Source: an uncultured Ignavibacteria bacterium (lineage in GTDB: Bacteria; Zixibacteria; MSB-5A5; SM1-73). From it: a stretch of 64,000 nt of DNA. Both the position numbers and the translations under genes were made by a program. Shown here one piece after another: positions 8,205-32,481 of the stretch (its first letter is position 1; the number at the start of each line of letters is the position of its first letter). The notes below the pieces were generated by a model. The model was given only the letters and a program-made list of their open reading frames with translations. It was not told the DNA's origin and did no database searches. The DNA is taken from the NCBI GenBank assembly GCA_964348415.1, contig CAYGCR010000009.1:649-64648 (forward strand), in the 5' to 3' direction.

Positions 8205-8876
8205 ATGGAATTTCTTCAAAGCCCCAAATCCAAGAAGCTGGTCCTCCTGGGGGCGGGACTGGTGGTGGTGATTCTGGTCGGATTCTTCCTTTTGAAGTTC
8301 ATGACCTCAGGAGGAGCCGATGTGGTCCCGGAGAAACCCCGGTCCACCCAGCGGAGCGTAAAGAAGATCTCTAAACCTAAAGCGGAGGAGCCGAAGAAGT
8401 CTCCCCTTTATGAGGCTATGAAAGCCCTTAAGGATCCGTTCCGGGCTGAGGACCCCAGAGCTGCAGAATTGCAGGATAAGCTCAGCCTGACTCAAAAAGA
8501 AGTGGAATACTTAAGGGCAATCTTGGAGGAAAAAAAACTCCGGCACGAGATAAAGGTAATAGAGAGGTCCATAGCCGAAGCTGACCGGGCAAGCTCACCC
8601 TGCGAACAGGCAGCCGCGTCATCCTCCCAAGCAGGAAAAGCAGAGGCCAGCTCCAAAAAGCAACGGGTGCTGGTCAAGGCAATACTGATCACTGATGAAG
8701 AGAAAAGTGCTCTGTTGGTCTCCGGGAGCAAGAAGACTTGGGTTCACGAAGGAGAGAATTTCGACGGTTGGGACATAAAAGAGATCAGAAGGGAAAGTGT
8801 CGTCCTCTCCAAGGAGGGGAAGACAATCGTTTTCTTTTATGATCGTCCCGGCATTTTTCGGGAAGGAGAATCATGA
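8205..8876 (+). CDS. PilP/MshK-like pilus assembly protein
   Basis: TM LVLLGAGLVVVILVGFFLL, low-complexity linker, C-terminal beta domain VLVKAILITDEEKSALLVSGSKKTWVHEGENFDGWDIKEI typical of PilP. Start taken at ATG 8205, just after the upstream stop. Confidence 0.5.
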   Translation: MEFLQSPKSKKLVLLGAGLVVVILVGFFLLKFMTSGGADVVPEKPRSTQRSVKKISKPKAEEPKKSPLYEAMKALKDPFRAEDPRAAELQDKLSLTQKEVEYLRAILEEKKLRHEIKVIERSIAEADRASSPCEQAAASSSQAGKAEASSKKQRVLVKAILITDEEKSALLVSGSKKTWVHEGENFDGWDIKEIRRESVVLSKEGKTIVFFYDRPGIFREGES

Positions 8877-10342
8877 GAAGGTTCGGTTCCACCAGGGGGG
8901 TGCTTGCACTGCTTTCTGTATTGCTTTTTCTTTGCGGCTGCGCGTCAAATCTATCCCAGCAGGACGTGACCAAGGCCATATCGCAGACCGAAGAGGACCA
9001 CGACACTCCGCCGCCGCTGCCTCCCGAGTTAGGCCTGTCTCCCCTGCTCGATCTTCCGCCGGAGAAGGAAAAACTCTTTTCCTTCTCCGCCATAGAGGTC
9101 GCTCTGGAGGATGTGCTGCTTCCTTTATCAAAAGAGGCCGGGCTTAATATCATGTGGGATAAGGATGTTGATCCAAAGGCCCGCCTCAGCGTGAGTTTCG
9201 AAGATCTGACGCTGCTGGAAGCTTTAGAAGCCATATTTGCCCGGACCGAATACATGTATTGCATAAACAGTCCTACACTTCAGGTCAAACTTGTAGATAC
9301 CCGCACGTTTGAGTTAGGGCATGTTCCGACTAAGACCCAATCTCGGATGCAGGTGGGAGGGGACGTGCTGGGATCCATTCCCAATGTGGGAGGGGTGAGC
9401 GGTCAGTTCCAAATCACCGGGTCGACCGACGATGAGGCGCTTGATCTCTGGAAGCAGGTGAAGGAAGGGCTGGAGAACATAGTCTCACCAGAAGGGAAAT
9501 TCTTTGTAAACAAGCTTGCCGGAATGGTGACGGTGACCGACCGAAAGAGAAACCTTAAGCTGGCAGAAGAGTTTATCCAAAAGTTGAGAGCTACTTTGGA
9601 AAGACAGGTGCTGATTGAAGCCGAGGTAGTTGAAGTCACTCTGGAGCAAGCCCAAAGTTGGGGGGTGGATTGGTCGGCGATTCACTCCTTCTTGGTGGAT
9701 AACAAGACCATAGAACTGACAGGTACTCAGACGTTAGGCCTGCCTGGCTCCGTGGTAGAATTGACCGCCTCCCGGCATGATGCTGCCGTTATTCTGGACA
9801 TCCTGGGTCAGTTCGGTGAGGTTCACGTGCTGTCCAAACCCAGAATCAACGTGATGAACGGTCAGACTGCAATGATCAACGTGGGGCGGGTGATAAGCTA
9901 CTGGGAGTTGACCGGACTTTCCGCCGGAGCAGAGGTGGGGCAGCCAATTGTCTTTCCCGAGCAGAAGACGGTGCTTCTGGGCCTGACCATGGGCGTGACC
10001 CCTTATATCTCAGCAGACGGTTACGTTACCCTGCAGGTGGTTCCAATTGTGAGCGATGCCAGCACCTTCTCCGAGTTTCAATTTGAGAGTCAAATGCTCA
10101 AAGCTCCCAACATAGACATCCGCGAGACCAGCACTCAGGTGCGGATAAAAAATGGCGAGACCGTGGTAATCGGCGGTCTTATCACCTCCAGGAAAACGGA
10201 CACAGAACACAAAGTGCCCTTGCTGGGCGATCTCCCCCTGTTGGGCTACTTCTTTAAGCGAAAGGAAAAGACCGAGCAAAGAGCAGAGCTGGTGATCCTT
10301 CTAACTCCCCGAATTGCACGGATGGACAGAGAGGAAGGCTGA
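8873..10342 (+). CDS. type IV pilus / type II secretion secretin (PilQ/MshL/GspD family), lipoprotein
   Basis: Lipobox LLFLCGCASN. Secretin domain VLSKPRINVMNGQTAMINVG ... and C-terminal signature VPLLGDLPLLGYFFKRKEKTEQRAELVILLTPRI. Confidence 0.85.
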   Translation: MRRFGSTRGVLALLSVLLFLCGCASNLSQQDVTKAISQTEEDHDTPPPLPPELGLSPLLDLPPEKEKLFSFSAIEVALEDVLLPLSKEAGLNIMWDKDVDPKARLSVSFEDLTLLEALEAIFARTEYMYCINSPTLQVKLVDTRTFELGHVPTKTQSRMQVGGDVLGSIPNVGGVSGQFQITGSTDDEALDLWKQVKEGLENIVSPEGKFFVNKLAGMVTVTDRKRNLKLAEEFIQKLRATLERQVLIEAEVVEVTLEQAQSWGVDWSAIHSFLVDNKTIELTGTQTLGLPGSVVELTASRHDAAVILDILGQFGEVHVLSKPRINVMNGQTAMINVGRVISYWELTGLSAGAEVGQPIVFPEQKTVLLGLTMGVTPYISADGYVTLQVVPIVSDASTFSEFQFESQMLKAPNIDIRETSTQVRIKNGETVVIGGLITSRKTDTEHKVPLLGDLPLLGYFFKRKEKTEQRAELVILLTPRIARMDREEG

Positions 10343-19981: not shown

Positions 19982-20068
19982 GGAGGGTTAGTCCTAACTG
20001 GTAAGGCAGTGGACTTGAAATCCACCGGCCGCAAGGCCTTGCGGGTTCGAATCCTGCACCCTCCGCCA
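19982..20068 (+). tRNA. tRNA-Ser (anticodon TGA), long variable arm, CCA encoded
   Basis: GGAGGGT acceptor, anticodon stem-loop GTGGA-CTTGAAA-TCCAC, variable arm CGGCCGCAAGGCCTTGCG, T-arm GCGGGTTCGAATCCTGC, ACCCTCC-G-CCA. Confidence 0.85.
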
Positions 20069-22769: not shown

Positions 22770-23399
22770 TTGTCGGGCAGGATCTCATACGTTCGGCTCA
22801 ATGCACGAATCCGTGACTCTTGTCGCAAGTTAGTACGGTTGCTGAACTACGAACATGGTTTTCCCCCTCGGAACTCCGAATCATCTGCCGTTTTAGCGCC
22901 CCTCAACCTGCGGTCGGCCTTGGGTCTAGATCACTTCTGAATCTCTCCGGTTTGCTTCGGTCACCCATCCCGACAGTATGCTAACTCGCGCGGTCCCCTA
23001 CTTCTCGTCCAACACAGCTCTTTTCTTGCATGGCCCGATCACATTGCGCTGCGAGAATCACGTTGACTGCCTGAATCATAGCATGAGCTTATCGGGTAGA
23101 GGCATCCTTCAGGTGGAACTGCTACCGGGGTTTTGATTGAATCCAAGAAGCAGGCAGGGGGAGGAACTTTAGAAGGGCTTTGGCAAAGGACAATACGAAT
23201 GGCAAGAATAACTTGAGGCTTTTCTTTGGACAACCAGCTTAGAAAGCGCTGTTTAATTTAAGATGTTATCAAACGTTACAGGAAAGTATGTGGATAACTG
23301 CATCCCGATGGTGCTAAGTGTGGCGAGTTAAGCTGTTAATAGAAAACAAATTAACAAATTTTCCACAAACTCCCGGCAGTTACCAACATCAGTAGTCTC

Positions 23400-24711: not shown

Positions 24712-25596
24712 TTATAGAGTTATCGACAACAATTCCAATATCCTGGATAGGTCTTCCTCTGAATAAAACTCTATCTGGACCTTCCCTCCTTTGCCTTTCG
24801 CCAGAACCTTGACTGACGTTCCGAAAAACTCTTTCAACTTCTCCTCCACTTCAAAAAACGCCGGGGAAGTCTTCTTCTTGGGTCTGGAGCCAGGAGTCTT
24901 CTTCTTTCCGTACGCTAAATCTTCGGTGCTTCGCACAGAAAGCCCCTCTTTGACCACTCGTCTGGACAAGGCTACTTGTTCTCTTTCACTGGATAGCGAA
25001 AGTATAGCCCGAGCGTGTCCCTCCGATAGCTTTCCGCTTGACATCAGCTTCTGTACCTCCTCGGGCAAGCTTAAAATTCTCAGGGTGTTGGCAACCGAGG
25101 AGCGGTCCTTCCCTATTCTTTGCGCCACCTGTGTCTGAGTGAGGAGGCACTCCTCTAAAAGCCTCTTGTAGCCTCTGGCGGTATCAATTGGATTCAAATC
25201 CTCCCTTTGAAGATTCTCGACCAAGGAGAGTTCCAGCATCTGTTCTTTGGAGAGCTTTCCCGCTATCACCGCCGGAACTGTCTCCAAGCCCAGCTTTTTT
25301 GCCGCCATAAGTCGTCTTTCCCCAGCAACCAATTCAAATTCATCTCCCACCTGTCTGACCACCACCGGTTGTATGAGTCCCTTTTCCTTTATGGAGGCAG
25401 CAAGCTCGGAGAGCTTGCCCTCGTCGATTCTGGTGCGGGGTTGATAGCGGCTTGACTTGATCTTATCGATCTTCAGATTCACCAGCCCTGTCTCCGCCTG
25501 CTTCTCTGCCTTCAGCAGCGCTTGAGGACGTTCAGGGATCAGAGCCTCCAGACCTTTTCCCAGAGCGTTTCTACTCATTGGGGACCTCTCCAACAT
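24712..25596 (-). CDS. parB: chromosome partitioning protein ParB (Spo0J)
   Basis: ParB box [33 protein letters not shown]. Overlaps the upstream parA. Confidence 0.9.
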
Positions 25597-26461
25597 AGAC
25601 TGTTTCTAAAACCTCTGCGCTATGATTTAGCATCTCCTCTGCCAGACTCAAATAGTTCTCGGCTCCGACTGAGGTTATATCGTAAAGTATTATTGGCTTG
25701 CCAAAGCCGGGAGCCTCGGAAAGCCTCACGTTTCTGTTTATGACCGTCTTGAAAACCTTGTCCAAAAAATATTTCCTGGTCTCATCCGCCACCTGTCTGG
25801 ATAGATTCAGTCTTCCATCGTACATGGTAAGGAGAACGCCTTCAATCCTGAGATCGGGATTCAAGTTATCCTGTACCAGTTTGATGGTATTTAAAAGCAG
25901 GCTCAATCCTTCCAGAGCATAGTATTCGCACTGGATGGGTATCAGGATGGAGTCTGCGGCGGTAAGAGTGTTGATGGTCAAAAGTCCCAGCGACGGAGGT
26001 GAATCAATTAAGATGAAATCATACTTCTCTCTTACCGGTTCGAGCGCAATGCGGAGCTTGGTCTCCCGGGCTAAGGCGCTCACCAACTCCACCTCGGCAC
26101 CTACCAGGCGAAGCTGAGAAGGGATCAAATCCAGAAAAGAAAGCTCCGTCTTCCGAATCACCGTTTCTGCGGGCACATCCCCGATCAGCACCTCGTAAAT
26201 ACTCCTCTCCAGCTTGTTCTTATCAACTCCCAATCCAGAGGTGGAGGTGGCCTGGGGGTCGATGTCCACGAGCAGGGTCTTTTTCTCAGCCACGGCCAAG
26301 CAGGCTGACAGGTTAACTGCCGTGGTGGTTTTTCCAACGCCGCCCTTCTGATTGGCAACAGCGATTATCCTTCCCAAAGTCTTGTCCCCTCCTCCAAACT
26401 GACGGTCAGCGAACAAATCCCATGTTTTTCTATACATAACGGTTTTTCCCCAAAAAAGCAA
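25571..26461 (-). CDS. parA: chromosome partitioning ATPase ParA (Soj)
   Basis: Deviant Walker [19 protein letters not shown]. True start possibly at MYRK (26437). Confidence 0.9.
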
Positions 26462-27493
26462 GAGATTTTAACAGAAAAATCTCCGGCGCAAGTCCATTGC
26501 TCGCCAACAGGCGAAAGGTCCGCCACTTGACGCACCGAATTTTCTTCACATCCAACTCACAACGTTGGCAATTGTCGTTTACGAAAAACACTCCCGGCCC
26601 AAATCCTAGTGGTCGATTTGGTGGCCCAGCGTTGTTTTTTTTGAGATAGCCAGGAAGAAAGTGAAGGCCAGCGGCGCGACTCTTAGATGTGAACCCGTTT
26701 CTGACGGGATTGAGGGTGATGCAGGTGAACTCTCTCGAAACTTTAACAAGAGAGTGCACGAAGATCTCGTAGACGCGGATCGCCTTGCGAAAGCGGGGAC
26801 AGTCGCTGGGGATGATGCCGAGAAACCTTGACACTTGCAGATACTATCTCCAGTTACTCGGGTTTGGGGACTATTTGTTCTCATATTTCACCGACGCAGA
26901 AAAAATGTAACGCTTAGCCGTAGCCAGGAATAAATCATCCAAAATTCGTGTCGTCCGCGTCGCCTGACAGCGTCTGGTACCTTGCCTCAACTCAGGATGG
27001 CCAGTTTAACCTTTTTCCGCAACGGGACGTAAGGTGATGACAGCGGCAGGCATACTTGGCACCACTGCGAGTTGAAGAAACAAACCCTTGCCTTCCACCG
27101 CTGCAAGTCCAGTTTTGAGGCTAACGGGAAGAAGTAATGCTGCCGATCGATCATAAGATTCCCGTGGTTAGACCAAAAGAGGCGGACAGACTGACTGTAT
27201 CGGAGCCCATCGATTATCCCTTTTTCTGCTTAGAAGAATCAAGGTTGCGCCCGGTTCTTACTTTTGCTTCCTTCGGGCGGAAATCCTAGTTTAGAAGCCC
27301 CCCTTTCTCACTCCTGCGATGGTTCTTGTCACGAAAAACAACAGGGCTTAGGAGAAAGAAAGGCAGCTTTGCGATCGAAGTTATTGGCTGCGTGAGAGAT
27401 CGAGCGTTTCGGCCACCCCAACTGGATGTTTGTAACCATCTGAACTTGGGATTCAACAGTCTGTAAAAAATCCATTAATATCAAAAAAATCAC

Positions 27494-27522
27494 TTGACAC
27501 AGGGACCACAATTAGGTAATAT
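27494..27522 (+). promoter_or_regulatory. strong sigma70-like promoter TTGACA-17-TAATAT with about 170-nt leader
   Basis: ttgaca at 27494-27499, a 17-nt spacer, taatat at 27517-22. Followed by a 170-nt 5'UTR and RBS aaggaggg before ATG 27698. Confidence 0.5.
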
Positions 27523-27697
27523 AGGTTCTGTCGAGGGAGCACGCAAAACCCTTTCTTCTGGTATACGGGAGGCATAATGCCACCATTATGGTATGGCGCA
27601 GGATAATAGACTCGCCGGCTCGCTCATTGGTGGTTCAACGGTTTTGAGTTCCGAAGCGATTGTTTTGATTCCTGCTGGTTAAAGCAAGGAGGGTGTC

Positions 27698-28663
27698 ATG
27701 GCAAAGGCAATAGAGCAGTCGGAATCCGGTCTGACAGTAGGCCATTTTGGCCTCGGTTCCCGGGGTGGCACGGTGGGAAGCATCCGGCACCAAGTGCACG
27801 ATGGAGACACCATCAGTGTCCGTGCTCTTGGCAATTTTGGCATTCGTTTCCTTGGAGTAGATGCCCCCGAAATCAGTTTCAGACTCCCAGACGAGACCGC
27901 GTTCAGCGGGCTTGGGCACGAGAGATGGGAAGCTTTCTTAACGGATCCGTTTGCACAGGGCTTACGACCGTTTGACCCCCCTATCGCTCCGGGATTGCGC
28001 AACTACCTGCTACAGCAGTTAGGGCCGGGCGTCGCAACGAACCAGCACAATCATGCCGAGGCTGCCGAAGATGTCCTGGAGCAAGAGGTGGTCAAAGACG
28101 TGCGGGCACTTGGCCAGTCAGAAGATGACTTCAAGTTCTTCCTTGCCTTCGCTCACGAAATCGTGGATAGATACGGCCGTCTTCTCTGCTTTATCAACCG
28201 CCACCAACCTGACCCCGCTGTTCCAGAGAAACGGCGGCCGCTTTCGTACAATGAGCGATTATTGAAAGAGGGTAAAGTTGCCCCCTATTTCATATTTCCC
28301 AATTTAGATCCATTCAGGAGCAAGGAATCCATCACCGAGGCTGTCATTCCTGCGGGCACCGCCGCTAATCTGGCCAGTGGGGACAATGCGCTGGGTCTTG
28401 CAAGAAAGTGGGTCCGCGACGCCAGAACAAGAAGCGGCGGAATATTCGATGGGAACGATCCATTGAAACTGCAGCCTTTTGAGGTAAGATTCCTGGCCAG
28501 GAGAAAGCCACCAGATCGCTGGGTCATTGACCTGGGCAAGAACGATAATGCCCTCATGCGGCCGCAGAAATACTACAGCGTACCCAGGGTGGAGGACCGC
28601 CTGTACATCCCCAGCCAGTTCGTACCCTTATTCGTGGAAGCAGGATGGCAAAAGCAGAATTAG
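27698..28663 (+). CDS. staphylococcal nuclease (SNase/thermonuclease)-fold protein with internal insertion and C-terminal extension
   Basis: VHDGDTISVRALGNFGIRFLGVDAPE (Ca-site DGDT plus catalytic GVDAPE). Later DRYGRLLCFI and SYNERLLKEGKVAPYFIFPN match SNase DKYGRGLAYIY / [21 protein letters not shown]. No signal peptide. Confidence 0.7.
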   Translation: MAKAIEQSESGLTVGHFGLGSRGGTVGSIRHQVHDGDTISVRALGNFGIRFLGVDAPEISFRLPDETAFSGLGHERWEAFLTDPFAQGLRPFDPPIAPGLRNYLLQQLGPGVATNQHNHAEAAEDVLEQEVVKDVRALGQSEDDFKFFLAFAHEIVDRYGRLLCFINRHQPDPAVPEKRRPLSYNERLLKEGKVAPYFIFPNLDPFRSKESITEAVIPAGTAANLASGDNALGLARKWVRDARTRSGGIFDGNDPLKLQPFEVRFLARRKPPDRWVIDLGKNDNALMRPQKYYSVPRVEDRLYIPSQFVPLFVEAGWQKQN

Positions 28664-29200
28664 TCTCGGCTTTCAACCGGAGGTAAAAGGACCGGAAGCT
28701 CGTGCACATGCGAGCAATCTCCGTCGTAAAGACTCCGGTCCGGCTACTGGTGGTTTCGCCTTCGAGACCGAGCCTCTTGCGTTGGCACGGCAACCTGTCA
28801 GCTTTTGTGTACAGACAAAAATAGAATAGACTGAAACAAAAAGGTATAGACTCCCACGTAATCTGGATGTCTCGGGAGAAGGATCTTGGGGATAAGCCGC
28901 TGAAACGAGTGCGGCAAGCAGAGTGTCATCAAGCCACCTGAGCCCTCTTTGGATGGTTCATGTGGTCAGGTCGGCGGTGAACGTTCTCGGACCCCAACAG
29001 CTGCGAGACAGACCAAGGCATTTGCATCTGGTGTGAGCAGATTTGACCGTCCAAGCAGGTTTTCTTAACATTCCAACGCACATGGAGGTGCAGTACTCGC
29101 CTCATCTTTTCGAGGATCGACCCTTCTTCGTTCGCTGCAAAAAGGCCAGCGGGCTGGATATAGTACAAGGCATGCGTCAGCATGAGAAAGGAGGTGTACC

Positions 29201-29662
29201 ATGAGGCGTATCACACTCGTGCTTGTTGCGGGATTGGCTTTGATCCTTGCCGGTTCCGCCATATACGCACTGAACTGCAATGTCTCCTTCAGCTCGGTGC
29301 TCAGGATGGATGCTAGCGGCTATTGCCAGGCTAATGACTGGGTCATCGACAATCAGACTGACTTTTGCAGCTTCTGGAACCAGGCCAATGTTATCAGGCT
29401 TCCCCCTCCACCATGTCCGGAGATCGACTTTTCAACCTATGTGGTTATTGTGACCGCTATGGGGACCAGGCCCAATGGCTGCTACGGCACGGAAATCTAC
29501 TGCATTGAGGAGGACCAAAAGGGCAACTATACCGTCTATGTGAAGGATTACTATCCTAGAAAGGGATGGTTCTGCACTCAAATGATAGTCTGCCCGCTTC
29601 ATGCAGTCAAGGCACCAATTCCGAGGGGGACGGTAACGTTCCAGCATGAAATAGGTCAGTAG
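29201..29662 (+). CDS. secreted PrcB_C-domain protein
   Basis: Signal peptide MRRITLVLVAGLALILAGSAIYA. PEIDFSTYVVIVTAMGTRPNGCYGTEIYCIEEDQKGNYTVYVKDYYP...CPLHAVKAP fits the PrcB C-terminal domain pattern. Confidence 0.55.
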   Translation: MRRITLVLVAGLALILAGSAIYALNCNVSFSSVLRMDASGYCQANDWVIDNQTDFCSFWNQANVIRLPPPPCPEIDFSTYVVIVTAMGTRPNGCYGTEIYCIEEDQKGNYTVYVKDYYPRKGWFCTQMIVCPLHAVKAPIPRGTVTFQHEIGQ

Positions 29663-29738
29663 ATCGTTTGGTGCGAGTAGCAGGTGATGTTCCGGCCCGC
29701 TGGCTTTAGCTACAGCCCCAAAGACTATCGATTCTTAC

Positions 29739-30413
29739 TTAAAAACCCGGTCGCAGCTTCTCCGCGATAACCAGCCACCTGAAAAGCCGGAATGAAGGCG
29801 TTTCGATTTTCACTATATCTACAATTCGGCAGTTTTCACTGCAGTTTATCTCTCGAACTTCCCTGTAAGCGCCTTTCCCCTTATACGCCACCAATAATCC
29901 GTCTGCTTTCAGGAAAGGCATGCCGAGTCTGACCATATCTCTGAGTTTCCCCACTGCCTTGGCAGTAACCAGATCGAATCTTTCTCTCAAGCCAGTCTGA
30001 TCTGAGAGTCCCTCGGCTCGCTGGTCGAGTACCGATATGTTCTCAAGCTTCAGAACATCACTCAGTTTCCGCAGAAATAGCGTCTTCTTATGAATCGATT
30101 CCACCAGTGTCATTTTGACATCATCTCTGACGATTTTGATGGGGATAGCCGGAAAGCCTGGTCCAGATCCAAGATCCAAAAGCTCTGCCTGATTCGGCAG
30201 GTTGACAGCCTTGAAGATCGAGAGTGAATCGACGAAGTGTCTCATGATGCGGTCGTCTGTAGCATCCTTTTTGGAAACAAGATGAATTCTCTGATTCCAT
30301 TCCAGAAGCAGGCCTACGTAATCTTGGAAACTCTCTATCATCTTCTCAGAGAGGCTTACTCGGAATGAGGAGCAGATTCCTTTGAATTGGCTTATTTGAT
30401 GAGGGGAGAGCAT
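29739..30413 (-). CDS. rsmG: 16S rRNA (guanine527-N7)-methyltransferase RsmG (GidB)
   Basis: SAM motif LLDLGSGPGFPAIPIKI. Typical length. Downstream of mnmG. Confidence 0.9.
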   Translation of the reverse strand: MLSPHQISQFKGICSSFRVSLSEKMIESFQDYVGLLLEWNQRIHLVSKKDATDDRIMRHFVDSLSIFKAVNLPNQAELLDLGSGPGFPAIPIKIVRDDVKMTLVESIHKKTLFLRKLSDVLKLENISVLDQRAEGLSDQTGLRERFDLVTAKAVGKLRDMVRLGMPFLKADGLLVAYKGKGAYREVREINCSENCRIVDIVKIETPSFRLFRWLVIAEKLRPGF

Positions 30414-30444: not shown

Positions 30445-30460
30445 TGTTTCACGTGAAACA
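30445..30460. promoter_or_regulatory. perfect 16-bp palindrome TGTTTCACGTGAAACA (candidate operator), between mnmG stop and rsmG start
   Basis: Exact inverted repeat with CACGTG core, 32 nt upstream of the rsmG ATG. A second copy sits directly upstream of mnmG. Confidence 0.5.
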
Positions 30461-30470
30461 TCAGAAGCTG

Positions 30471-32381
30471 TCAACGGATTGAGCGGACATCATCCGTTCT
30501 ATCCGTTTGATCCGTTGACCGTTTTGCTCCGAACTGCTTGAGATAAACCATCAAGATAGCTACGTCCCCGGGTGACACACCAGAGATGCGGGAAGCTTGT
30601 CCGACTGAGACCGGCTTGACTCTTTTCAGTTTCTCCAGAGCCTCCCGTTTGAAGCCCTTGAGGCCATCGTAGCTGAAGTTTTCCGGTATCCGCATCGACT
30701 CCAGCCTCTTGGACTTCTCGATCTCCTTATTCTGCCTTCGAATATAGCCCTCGTATTTGATCTCCAGCTCCACCTGGTCAGAAACCTCTGGCGCTACCTC
30801 CTGCGCTTCCCAGTCCACCTTTCTAACATCCTGGTAGGTGATCTGCGGCATCCTCAATATCTTTGCCAGAGACATCTTTCGACTATTCTCCATTTCCCCC
30901 AGAAGATGAGGAAAAGAGGACAGAGAAACGAACACTCGTTTCAGCCGAGCTTTCTCCTTCTCCACCCCTTCCCTCTTTTCTCGATACTTGACGTAGATCT
31001 CGTCTGAGACCAGTCCGTATGTGTGTCCGTATTCGAGCAGCCTCTGGTCCGCGTTGTCTTCTCTCAGCACCAGCCGGTATTCGGCTCGCGAGGTGAACAT
31101 GCGATAAGGCTCCTCCGTACCTTTGGTGACCAGGTCATCAATTAAGACTCCAACGTAGGCCTCGCTCCTTTCCAGCACGAAGGGTGGGGCCCCCTTTAGC
31201 TTCAAAACTGCGTTTATCCCCGCCATAATTCCCTGAGCTGCCGCCTCTTCGTACCCGGACGTCCCGTTGATTTGCCCGGCAAAATAGAGATTCTCCACCA
31301 GCTTTGTCTCCAGCGTATGCTTCAGCTGTATCGGAGGGAAGTAATCATATTCTATCGCGTAGCCGGTTCGCATCATCCTGGCATTCTCAAGACCGGGGAC
31401 GGTTCTGAGAGCTCTGAACTGAACATCTTCGGGCAGGCTGGTGGCAAAGCCATTCACGTAGTACTCGGCAGTCCCCAGTCCTTCCGGCTCAAGGAATAGC
31501 TGGTGTCTGGGCTTCTCTCGGAACTTGACCACCTTATCCTCGATGGAAGGACAGTACCGGGGTCCAATCCCCTGGATCTTGCCACTGTAGAGGGGCGATC
31601 TGTCCAGATTATTCAGGATTACCTCATGGGTGCCTGAGTTGGTGTAAGTCAAATAGCAGAGGGCTCTGTTCCGGGGCGGGTTCTTTGTCCGAAGAGAAAA
31701 CGGCTTGGGGTGCTCATCCCCGTGCTGAGGAATAGTCTTTGAGAAATCGATGGTTCTTCCGTCCAGCCGGGGAGGTGTCCCGGTCTTCAAACGTCCTGAG
31801 CGAAAACCGAGCTTGACCAGATTCTCAGTGAGACCGCGGGCTGGGAATTCTCCTGCTCTGCCCGCCGAGAACTGCTCTAATCCTATGTGAATCAAACCAT
31901 TGAGAAACGTGCCGCAGGTCAGGATGACAGCATTTGAGTAATAAGCCATCCCCGTTCCTGTGACCACTCCGTAAGCTTTTCCGCTCTTCACCAGGACTTC
32001 GATAACCATATCCTGTTTTATAAAAAGGCGGTCTTGATTCTCGATAGATTCGCGCATTGCCAGACGATACAACGACCTGTCGTTCTGGGTACGCGTGGAC
32101 CAAACCGCCGGGCCTTTCTTCAGATTCAGCGTCTTGATCTGGATGGCTGTCTTATCTGCTATGAAGCCTATCTCCCCCCCCAAGGCATCGATTTCTTTAA
32201 CCAATTGCCCTTTAGCCTGACCGCCTACTGCCGGATTGCATGACATCTGGGCGATGGTCTCCTTGTTCATGGTAAAAAGGAGGGTCCTCTGCCCCATCCT
32301 GGCGGCAGCCAGTGCTGCCTCACATCCGGCGTGCCCGGCACCTACAACGATTATGTCGAATTCCTCTTCGTACGTCGGCAT
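30471..32381 (-). CDS. mnmG: tRNA uridine 5-carboxymethylaminomethyl modification enzyme MnmG (GidA)
   Basis: FAD motif [20 protein letters not shown]. Full-length 636 aa. Confidence 0.95.
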
Positions 32382-32383
32382 AC

Positions 32384-32398
32384 TGTTTCACGTGAAAC
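32384..32398. promoter_or_regulatory. second copy of palindrome TGTTTCACGTGAAAC immediately 5' of the mnmG start codon
   Basis: 15/16 match to the 30445 copy. Ends 3 nt from the mnmG ATG on the coding strand. Confidence 0.5.
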
Positions 32399-32481
32399 GG
32401 GTTCGTATCGGTCGCATTCATGCGACCACAGAACAGCGTAGCCGGAGCCATGCGGTTTTCAAGAATCTACGCATCTGCGGC

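Follow-up and report, generated by a model that had tools for sequence, protein, structure and literature searches.

We consider it probable that the junction between rsmG and parA in the DNA analysed here, a stretch of 64,000 nucleotides from an uncultured Ignavibacteria bacterium (the window), is a variable slot in which non-essential cargo has gathered in at least two steps, which as a whole is the best explanation of the observations. In an old, first step, a secreted or membrane-anchored PrcB_C-domain protein would have been placed convergent to rsmG. Later, a self-contained module may have entered between PrcB_C and parA, made up of at least ~0.55 kb of non-coding upstream DNA, a sigma-70-like promoter, a gene for a 321-aa protein and a ~0.24-kb 3' flank; at this site it is seen only in the lineage of the window and L001 (L-numbers denote the loci or contigs compared with the window).

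The rsmG-parA junction in the window and in related genomes

The first-pass annotation had described a 3.3-kb insertion that splits a conserved mnmG-rsmG/parA-parB block. All items on its list, from coordinates and ORFs to the promoter-like site and the motifs, are present in the window. The variable region is flanked by parA (25571-26437, minus strand; Pfam AAA_31/CbiA/ParA), with a dN/dS of 0.08 between the window and L001, and by rsmG (29739-30413, minus strand; Pfam GidB, 148.5 bits). The ORF list places parB (24712-25596, Pfam ParB) and mnmG (30471-32381) next to them, both also on the minus strand. For parA, the ORF at 25571-26461 with a TTG start at 26461 exists as annotated, but translation probably starts elsewhere: N-terminal conservation with L087 extends to 26467, and by comparison with relatives ATG 26437 is the likely start codon. 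Gene callers put the start at 26377. In agreement with the proposed origin-proximal location, parS sites are found near the region.

Judging by the names of RsmG homologues, which are 61-65% identical, the DNA probably belongs to Zixibacteria. Relatives whose RsmG is 66% identical keep the gene block, and in L085/L086 and L087/L088 the same series of H-NOX, M1 peptidase, nitroreductase, bPH, mnmG, rsmG, parA, parB, M23 and bactofilin genes is seen. There, rsmG and parA are nearly contiguous, separated by 259-303 nt, so the window holds ~3.05 kb of extra DNA (approximately 26480-29530). Its homology breakpoints in blastn against the relatives lie at 26479 and 29531. On the parA side, the upstream DNA at 26438-26479 (minus strand) is common to the insert-less relatives, the homology to L085 and that to L087 both stop at 26479, and the edge of the insert is thus at 26479/26480. 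The extra DNA is present in some and absent from other related genomes at a fixed site. As L003/L004 are identical copies of the window DNA and L001/L002 are 88% identical to it, all in independent assemblies, an assembly artefact is not the cause. Other relatives carry different cargo downstream of rsmG, including, at the same junction, a pYEATS protein (L090) and a T4 gp19-like gene (L089).

The existence of extra DNA was thereby confirmed, at ~3.05 instead of 3.3 kb, while its description as one single insertion is not supported, because the PrcB_C gene predates the nuclease module and is independent of that module. This gene (29201-29662, plus strand) encodes a cysteine-rich protein of 153 aa whose N-terminus forms a signal peptide, as had been annotated, or a signal anchor; its PF14343 match (residues 82-137) is marginal, with 24.0 bits exactly at the cut-off of 24, and its dN/dS is 0.26. 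L108 has a full orthologue, 77% identical, which five other genes separate from rsmG at a distance of 6.1 kb. The blastn match between L108 and the window covers 29145-29712 and includes the last 56 nt (29145-29200) of the non-coding DNA 5' of the gene (28907-29200, plus strand), which also contains a promoter-like site at 29043-29071. Between PrcB_C and rsmG, whose 3' ends face each other, lies a spacer (29663-29738), termed slot A, which is empty here and filled with ~6 kb in L108. In the rsmG-parA spacer of L087/L088, residues 102-151 of PrcB_C are left as a truncated remnant with 74% identity. Judged from these alignments, the PrcB_C gene has long been present at the locus. The PrcB_C match and the N-terminal export signal recall dentilisin PrcB of Treponema denticola (PF14343; NF033596). 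The 153-aa protein differs from it in length, falling far short of the 176 positions of the PrcB model, in its score with the NF033596 equivalog (20.1 bits, cut-off 125) and in having the nuclease gene and rsmG as neighbours, with no protease partner (PrcA/PrtP) adjoining.

The nuclease module is common to the window and L093, where a methyltransferase gene, not PrcB_C, follows downstream. Sequence comparison thus shows a stepwise history for the extra DNA and not one event. That the whole arrangement is ancestral and the compact rsmG-parA junctions of the relatives are deletions appears unlikely. L087/L088 have clearly lost most of PrcB_C and all DNA up to 42 nt before parA, PrcB_C occurs in L108, the most distant relative examined (RsmG 61% identical), and the insert has the GC and GC3 of its host, all of which would fit such deletions. 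Against them, none of 80 other species has a member of the nuclease family in synteny with rsmG or parA, the closest nuclease beyond the L001 lineage is followed by a different gene, and no trace of the nuclease is present in L085-L092, L108 and L109; moreover, adjacency of rsmG and parA is a widespread state in bacteria. Under the preferred stepwise reading, the direction of change is ambiguous for the cargo-less relatives, and L085 could represent a clean loss.

How the DNA entered is not visible from an integrase, repeats or a tRNA. The proposed decayed mobile element found no support: an integrase, transposase or relaxase gene or remnant was absent from the gap between parA and the nuclease gene according to Pfam (ten longest stop-free segments), plasmid and phage DNA comparison and a six-frame search, the last being a weak test. 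Terminal direct or inverted repeats were limited to chance-like short two-copy repeats, none of them at the breakpoints, and the nearest tRNA is at 19982. The composition is likewise inconspicuous, with a GC of 0.549 and GC3 of 0.595 for the nuclease gene and 0.514 and 0.627 for PrcB_C, compared to means of 0.512 (sd 0.025) and 0.605 (sd 0.037) for the 44 genes of the window; hence the insert is not recent. The locus resembles integration hotspots and small genomic islets in that a fixed pair of core genes flanks differing content and gain, loss and remnants are seen. It differs from integration hotspots by the missing integrase, att-like repeats, tRNA and compositional signature, and its contents are old and ameliorated.

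ORF-free DNA and putative promoter region upstream of the nuclease gene

The region 26462-27697 contains no credible gene, as had been stated. Its drift was measured in the two informative comparisons, with L001 and with the 2.2-kb contig L093. Against L001, positions 26480-27493 diverge by 12%, with a dS of 0.07-0.23 in neighbouring genes; the substitutions have no 3-periodicity (p=0.28), and an indel in a T-run at 26633-26640 shifts the frame of the sole long ORF. The part at 27150-27493 (plus strand), non-coding DNA 5' of the nuclease gene and inherited with it, can be aligned to L093 at ~68% nucleotide identity with indels, the L093 nuclease being 87% identical. This alignment holds no conserved ORF, and its distance of ~0.42 compares to a dS of 0.55. 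The gap therefore drifts at about the neutral rate, its divergence being close to the synonymous rate. The part at 26480-27149 is lineage-specific non-coding DNA that drifts at about this rate.

The decayed coding fragments suspected here, and pseudogene remnants in general, were not supported. The ten longest stop-free segments gave no Pfam match, codon periodicity was lacking, and tblastn with all ORFs of 92 related loci against the non-coding parts returned a single, spurious match. A concatenated six-frame query of the gap against 5.8 billion proteins found nothing at E<=1, which is weak evidence because the positive control, a 95-aa ORF called on L001 with a local score of 1.9e-23, was missed as well. 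Similarity to plasmid or phage DNA was not detected, gap and leader had no match in the other 80+ nuclease loci, and a metagenome DNA-pattern scan yielded no further carriers of the non-coding flanks.

A known or structured ncRNA or riboswitch was also rejected. Rfam searches of gap and leader gave no match at the gathering cut-off or even at E<=5, and a 120-nt sliding fold scan of both strands of the gap (80 windows) was unremarkable, with a mean z of +0.18 and a minimum of -2.6. An oriC was rejected too, as the region is absent from relatives and has no DnaA-box cluster: no box with up to one mismatch was present, and six with two mismatches compare to ~4 expected. The GC is 0.49. The gap contains no parS.

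These results bear on the possibility that the ORF-free 1.2 kb are functional non-coding DNA, i.e. a large ncRNA, an extended regulatory region from which parA and the nuclease gene are transcribed divergently, or a centromere- or origin-like element. The gap has been kept in all three lineages with the nuclease at this site, with 6 gap columns in 1031 nt against L001; 50 nt (27378-27427) are 100% identical to L001, and 27354-27413 are ~78% identical to L093. In addition, parA needs a promoter on the gap side, and the region lies close to the origin, with parS sites in the vicinity. Nevertheless, a functional gap seems very unlikely, given an overall divergence at the synonymous rate, the empty Rfam search, no stretch folding beyond expectation, no DnaA-box cluster or parS, and complete absence of the region from relatives, which live without it, so that it cannot be essential. 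Short functional elements, e.g. the parA promoter or operators, could lie inside. We favour a non-functional spacer for the remaining 0.7-1 kb of ORF-free DNA, which would be under neutral drift and may be the debris of earlier cargo, decayed past recognition.

The annotated sigma-70-like motif TTGACA-17-TAATAT is found at 27494-27522 (plus strand), where 10 of 12 positions match, and is identical in L001. In L093 the -35 element is kept and a 6-nt deletion upsets the spacing. Its use as a promoter is inferred from the motif. The putative 5' leader (27523-27697, plus strand) ends with a strong Shine-Dalgarno sequence, AAGGAGG, at 27686-27692. The hairpin potential ascribed to this leader did not stand up to comparison with shuffled sequences, 59 of 200 of which fold equally well or better (z = -0.60). 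Neither this folding nor Rfam (E<=5) points to a riboswitch or structured cis-regulatory leader.

Fold and residues of the 321-aa protein

The protein encoded at 27698-28663 (plus strand) is predicted to be a divergent cytoplasmic member of the staphylococcal nuclease (SNase) superfamily. The SNase fold rests on structure prediction, which gives an OB-fold beta-barrel packed on three helices. The fold spans to approximately residue 255; the supposed 120-aa C-terminal extension thus shrinks to ~65 aa (approximately residues 257-321). In place of the annotated ~90-aa insertion, the extra sequence inside the fold amounts to ~85 aa in total, with the insertion at approximately residues 62-145. A signal peptide is absent. 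Downstream follows the 3' non-coding flank inherited with the nuclease (28664-28906, plus strand; homologous to L093 1521-1748), in which a terminator-like hairpin at 28781-28802 precedes a T-run.

Profile searches, which had placed the PrcB_C match exactly at its cut-off, left the nuclease below threshold. PF00565 (SNase) scored 14.2 bits with a cut-off of 21, and the NCBIfam models EcnA and NucI scored 23.7 and 15.3 bits with cut-offs of 180 and 250, respectively. Among 26 family members, 19 match PF00565 at E<=1, the best at 7.2e-6. In the HMMER alignment, residues D37, D55, A56, R50, E58 and R161 correspond to SNase D21, D40, T41, R35, E43 and R87. The catalytic residues have been kept, as 121 homologues show no variation at D35, D37, R50, D55, E58 and R161. 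The sole difference among the compared positions is A56 in place of T41, which is not expected to matter because T41 binds Ca2+ via its main-chain carbonyl.

The family thus shares with SNase/thermonuclease (PF00565; COG1525 'endonuclease YncB'; S. aureus Nuc) the colinear motifs DGDT, R-x4-D-x-P-E and YGR, a C-terminal helix followed by G-I-F/W, and equivalents of D19, D21, R35, D40, E43, Y85 and R87. In contrast to SNase, it has ~85 extra, mostly helical residues inside the fold and a conserved ~65-aa extension, it stays under the Pfam and NCBIfam thresholds and has Ala at position 41, and it carries no signal peptide, S. aureus Nuc being secreted. Compared with the SN domains of Tudor-SN (SND1) or extended-Tudor proteins, the 321-aa protein has no Tudor domain and no sequence similarity. 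Most of these eukaryotic SN-like domains are scaffolds without the catalytic residues, in contrast to the invariant residues found here.

By analogy, the protein probably is a functional phosphodiesterase that depends on divalent cations and has nucleic acid as its substrate. Judging by the SNase equivalents, D35, D37 and D55 would be the metal ligands, R50 and R161 would keep the scissile phosphate in place, and E58 would be the general base. The helical insertion and the C-terminal extension, both conserved and both lacking a structural match, probably control substrate access or assembly. A dN/dS of 0.12-0.35 shows that the nuclease gene is under strong purifying selection.

Family distribution and possible function

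The family comprises 661 clusters at 50% identity with a uniform architecture. Its patchy spread in bacteria and archaea at 45-67% identity suggests horizontal transfer. Many members are tagged COG1525 in JGI, and RefSeq names them 'hypothetical protein'. Seven Vibrio megaplasmids carry family members in an uninformative context, while no member turned up among 2.9 million viral contigs or in 50,697 phage entries. A partner gene is not conserved in 80 loci, all-against-all ORF clustering of 84 nuclease loci recovered synteny within lineages only, and a metagenome protein scan gave no new close relatives.

The first-pass annotation had raised a role as toxin or defence effector. As an abortive-infection or toxin effector in a defence hotspot, the cytoplasmic SNase-like protein would be restrained by its leader or by a small partner that has escaped notice. 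The patchy spread, the missing signal peptide, the conflict-type cargo of L090 and L089 at the same junction, the Vibrio megaplasmids and a weak local PADLOC match to an SNc-containing candidate (E 0.0068) would suit such an effector. We nonetheless regard it as decidedly unlikely, since the best match in PADLOC-DB 2.0 (13.6 bits, 30 residues) covers the DGDT...DAPE motif only and is not significant, and neither a conserved partner gene nor a conserved small ORF in the flanks common with L093 was found. The leader is unstructured, viral and phage sequences lack the family, and strong purifying selection with uniform architecture in all clusters differs from fast-evolving defence genes. A literature search returned nothing relevant on SNase in anti-phage defence or on EcnA.

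Taken together, the junction gives the impression of normal genome turnover, and nothing in the data points to a new kind of system. The practical yield is a corrected annotation and a variable slot in which gain, loss and gene remnants are visible. The long ORF-free stretch is a drifting spacer in which the tools used recognise no RNA, origin or pseudogene. The item of some wider value is the 320-aa family, which is very conserved, unannotated in RefSeq and uncovered by Pfam. There is a slim chance that its members are enzymes of a kind not described before, cytoplasmic, acting alone and spread by horizontal transfer, in which the invariant helical insertion and C-terminal extension give an intact SNase catalytic core a new specificity or regulation. 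If so, they might serve, for example, as defence or toxin nucleases encoded by one gene, or process RNA or DNA in a dedicated manner common to nitrifiers, Planctomycetes, Actinomycetes and archaea. With ~150 conserved residues without structural precedent, the family is a reasonable target for family definition.

The rsmG–parA interval and its relatives

Two plus-strand ORFs lie between the minus-strand genes rsmG (29739-30413; Pfam GidB) and parA (25571-26461 by longest ORF; Pfam ParA), as the first-pass annotation had described: a 321-aa ORF (27698-28663) with no significant Pfam match, and a 153-aa ORF (29201-29662) that matches PrcB_C at 24.0 bits, exactly the cut-off. In the ORF map, mnmG (30471-32381) and parB (24712-25596; Pfam ParB) are also on the minus strand. 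Strong Shine-Dalgarno sequences precede both plus-strand genes, and no credible ORF was found in the ~1.2 kb upstream of the 321-aa ORF (the gap) or in the 537 nt between the two. Identical DNA is present in an independent Logan assembly, and a version with an 88% identical gap in two others, which rules out an assembly artefact. Zixibacteria is the name carried by RsmG homologues with 61-65% identity; the organism therefore probably belongs to that phylum. The start of parA is uncertain (26377-26467): gene callers place it at 26377 (268 aa) and the first-pass annotation at a TTG at 26461. As protein-level conservation with the related metagenomic contig L087 reaches ~26467, the ATG at 26437 (288 aa) is favoured.

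Two pairs of related contigs, L085/L086 and L087/L088, encode an RsmG 66% identical to that of the window and share its gene block (H-NOX, M1 peptidase, nitroreductase, bPH, mnmG, rsmG, parA, parB, M23 peptidase, bactofilin), with only 259-303 nt between rsmG and parA. DNA homology to the window ends at 26479 on the parA side in both L085 and L087 and restarts at 29531 in L087; hence the window contains ~3.05 kb that these relatives lack. The proposed 3.3-kb insertion thus stands as extra DNA, but not as a single event, given the history of the PrcB_C gene and the behaviour of the nuclease gene.

Within the annotated rsmG–parA spacer of L087, 132 nt are 76% identical to window positions 29531-29662, the 3' end of the PrcB_C gene. 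This remnant (8811-8969; 4393-4542 in L088) consists of the final ~50 codons and shares 74% identity with window-protein residues 102-151; the opposite strand of L087 reads ...TVYVKDYDPRRGWFCPMMMVCPVHAVKAPIPTGTVTFQHAIVR*, and a stop codon directly precedes the remnant. PrcB_C was therefore formerly present there; most of it has since been deleted, as has all DNA to within 42 nt of parA. In L108, the relative furthest from the window of those examined (RsmG 61% identical), the gene is complete: its product is a 153-aa orthologue (77% identical), it is likewise convergent to rsmG, and five other genes lie in the 6.1 kb that separate the two. Other cargo follows rsmG in the relatives: a double-pYEATS protein and a 201-aa membrane protein in L090 (1694-2970), a 174-aa membrane protein in L091, T4 gp19-like, metallophosphatase and DUF362 genes in L089 (3411-9844), and a 755-aa protein without Pfam match and a Peripla_BP_6 protein in L108 (7990-14323). 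The order rsmG, slot A, PrcB_C, slot B, parA describes the locus best; in the window, slot B is occupied and slot A empty. The extra DNA is lineage-specific cargo that built up in steps at a junction of variable content, close to the partition genes near the origin.

A perfect parS (TGTTTCACGTGAAACA) is located at 30445-30460, between rsmG and mnmG, and a second copy with one mismatch at 32384-32399, just upstream of mnmG; the chance expectation for such matches in the window is only 0.19. Flanking mnmG, the pair marks the region as the ParB loading zone. A perfect DnaA box (23289, minus strand), a one-mismatch box (23359, plus strand) and two two-mismatch boxes fall within 170 nt at 23225-23390, a low-GC (0.445-0.455) gap between convergent LysR-type and bactofilin genes at which gene orientation flips. 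This arrangement may be fortuitous or may belong to an origin-related element.

Non-coding DNA around the nuclease gene

Comparison of the gap (26480-27493) with L001, which has the 88% identical version, gave 12% divergent sites without a three-base pattern (49/37/36, p=0.28). Substitutions in the flanking genes are clearly periodic, and dS there is 0.07-0.23, which indicates that the gap drifts at approximately the synonymous rate. Its only long ORF, 135 stop-free codons on the minus strand, is interrupted in L001, where the T-run at 26633-26640 differs in length by one base. The decayed coding fragments suggested earlier could not be demonstrated: Pfam found no domain in the long stop-free segments, none of the ORFs in the related loci showed similarity, and codon periodicity is absent. 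A six-frame query of a large protein database returned nothing, but as a known positive control was also missed, this negative carries little weight. Rfam gave no match over 26350-29800 even at E<=5. The leader (27523-27697), to which hairpin potential had been ascribed, is no more stably folded than shuffled sequence (z = -0.6), and a sliding fold scan of both strands of the gap gave a mean z of +0.18. The Rfam, folding, Pfam and periodicity results give no sign of a regulatory RNA or hidden gene in the gap. The gap contains neither a DnaA-box cluster nor a parS.

A decayed mobile element had also been considered. No repeat structure was seen at the insert breakpoints, no tRNA near the insert, and no similarity of the gap DNA to plasmids or phages. 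Nor is the composition distinct: GC and GC3 are 0.549 and 0.595 for the nuclease gene and 0.514 and 0.627 for PrcB_C, compared with means of 0.512 (sd 0.025) and 0.605 (sd 0.037) for the 44 genes of the window, which points to an arrival long ago. The gap DNA may be debris of earlier cargo, with which the PrcB_C remnant in L087 is consistent.

The only close copy of the nuclease outside the L001 lineage (87% amino-acid identity) is on the 2.2-kb contig L093. It shares with the window 548 nt upstream of the start codon (~68% identity with indels, up to the contig end) and ~243 nt downstream, with no conserved ORF in either flank; the upstream distance of ~0.42 against a dS of 0.55 is close to neutral. 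The next gene in L093 encodes a SAM-dependent methyltransferase, not PrcB_C. Hence, the nuclease gene moves together with the non-coding DNA on either side of it and separately from PrcB_C.

The promoter-like TTGACA-17-TAATAT noted earlier is present at 27494-27522. L093 retains the -35 hexamer, but a 6-nt deletion alters the spacing, so the promoter is imperfectly conserved. Within the upstream DNA, conservation is highest at 27354-27427, which contains GCGATCGAAG...GAGATCGAGC; positions 27378-27427 are 100% identical to L001 and 27354-27413 ~78% identical to L093. With three sequences this does not significantly exceed what neutral drift would give, but the stretch is a candidate operator of the nuclease promoter 90-140 nt downstream.

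A divergent SNase family

The 321-aa protein belongs to a compact, uniform family. A first search returned 616 homologues of ~320 aa, and a HMMER scan of 1.84 billion representatives gave 661 clusters at E<=1e-3, 179 of them at E<=1e-30. In one-genome-per-species contigs, a relative is encoded in 147 matching stretches. The 80 loci retained (44-67% identity) come from Nitrospirota, Manganitrophaceae, Planctomycetota, Chloroflexota, Actinomycetota, Cyanobacteria, Nitrosomonas, Nitrosopumilus, Methanosarcinales and Brockarchaeota, a pattern that points to horizontal spread. Among the nuclease loci from Deltaproteobacteria/Syntrophaceae MAGs, L011 has a tandem pair of SNase-like ORFs of ~320 aa, and in L008 two ORFs were likewise placed in the family.

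Sequence profiles weakly support a relationship to SNase, which provides the only PDB matches (E 0.35, three colinear segments): the Pfam SNase model scores 14.2 bits on the window protein, below the threshold of 21, and matches 19 of 26 family members at E<=1. D35, D37, R50, D55, E58, Y159 and R161 align with SNase D19, D21, R35, D40, E43, Y85 and R87; all are invariant in 121 homologues except Y159, which is nearly so. The catalytic residues are thus kept, the sole difference being Ala in place of SNase T41. An N-terminal hydrophobic segment is lacking, and dN/dS values of 0.35 against L001 and 0.12 against L093 show purifying selection. We conclude that the protein is a divergent, intracellular SNase-superfamily enzyme, and infer a putative metal-dependent nucleic-acid phosphodiesterase.

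Conflict-type cargo at the same junction in relatives would fit a defence effector or toxin, as first proposed, but this reading found no support and is unlikely. PADLOC gave only a local 13.6-bit match, and clustering of ORFs from 84 loci, with kinases, oxidoreductases, recombinases and amidases as neighbours, revealed no partner conserved beyond lineage-internal synteny. PHROGs gave weak matches to nuclease families; the family was found neither in 2.9 million viral contigs nor in phage records. Of 72,556 plasmids, only seven carry it, all Vibrio megaplasmids; there it bears the label 'hypothetical protein' and is flanked by an H-NOX/kinase pair on one side and a ricin-domain protein on the other. 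Its strong constraint and uniform architecture are also unlike typical defence genes. Overall, the observations of the first-pass annotation largely hold and its interpretation is half right: the cargo is lineage-specific, but shows no sign of a mobile element or a defence system. The only feature of wider interest at this locus is the uncharacterised SNase-derived family.
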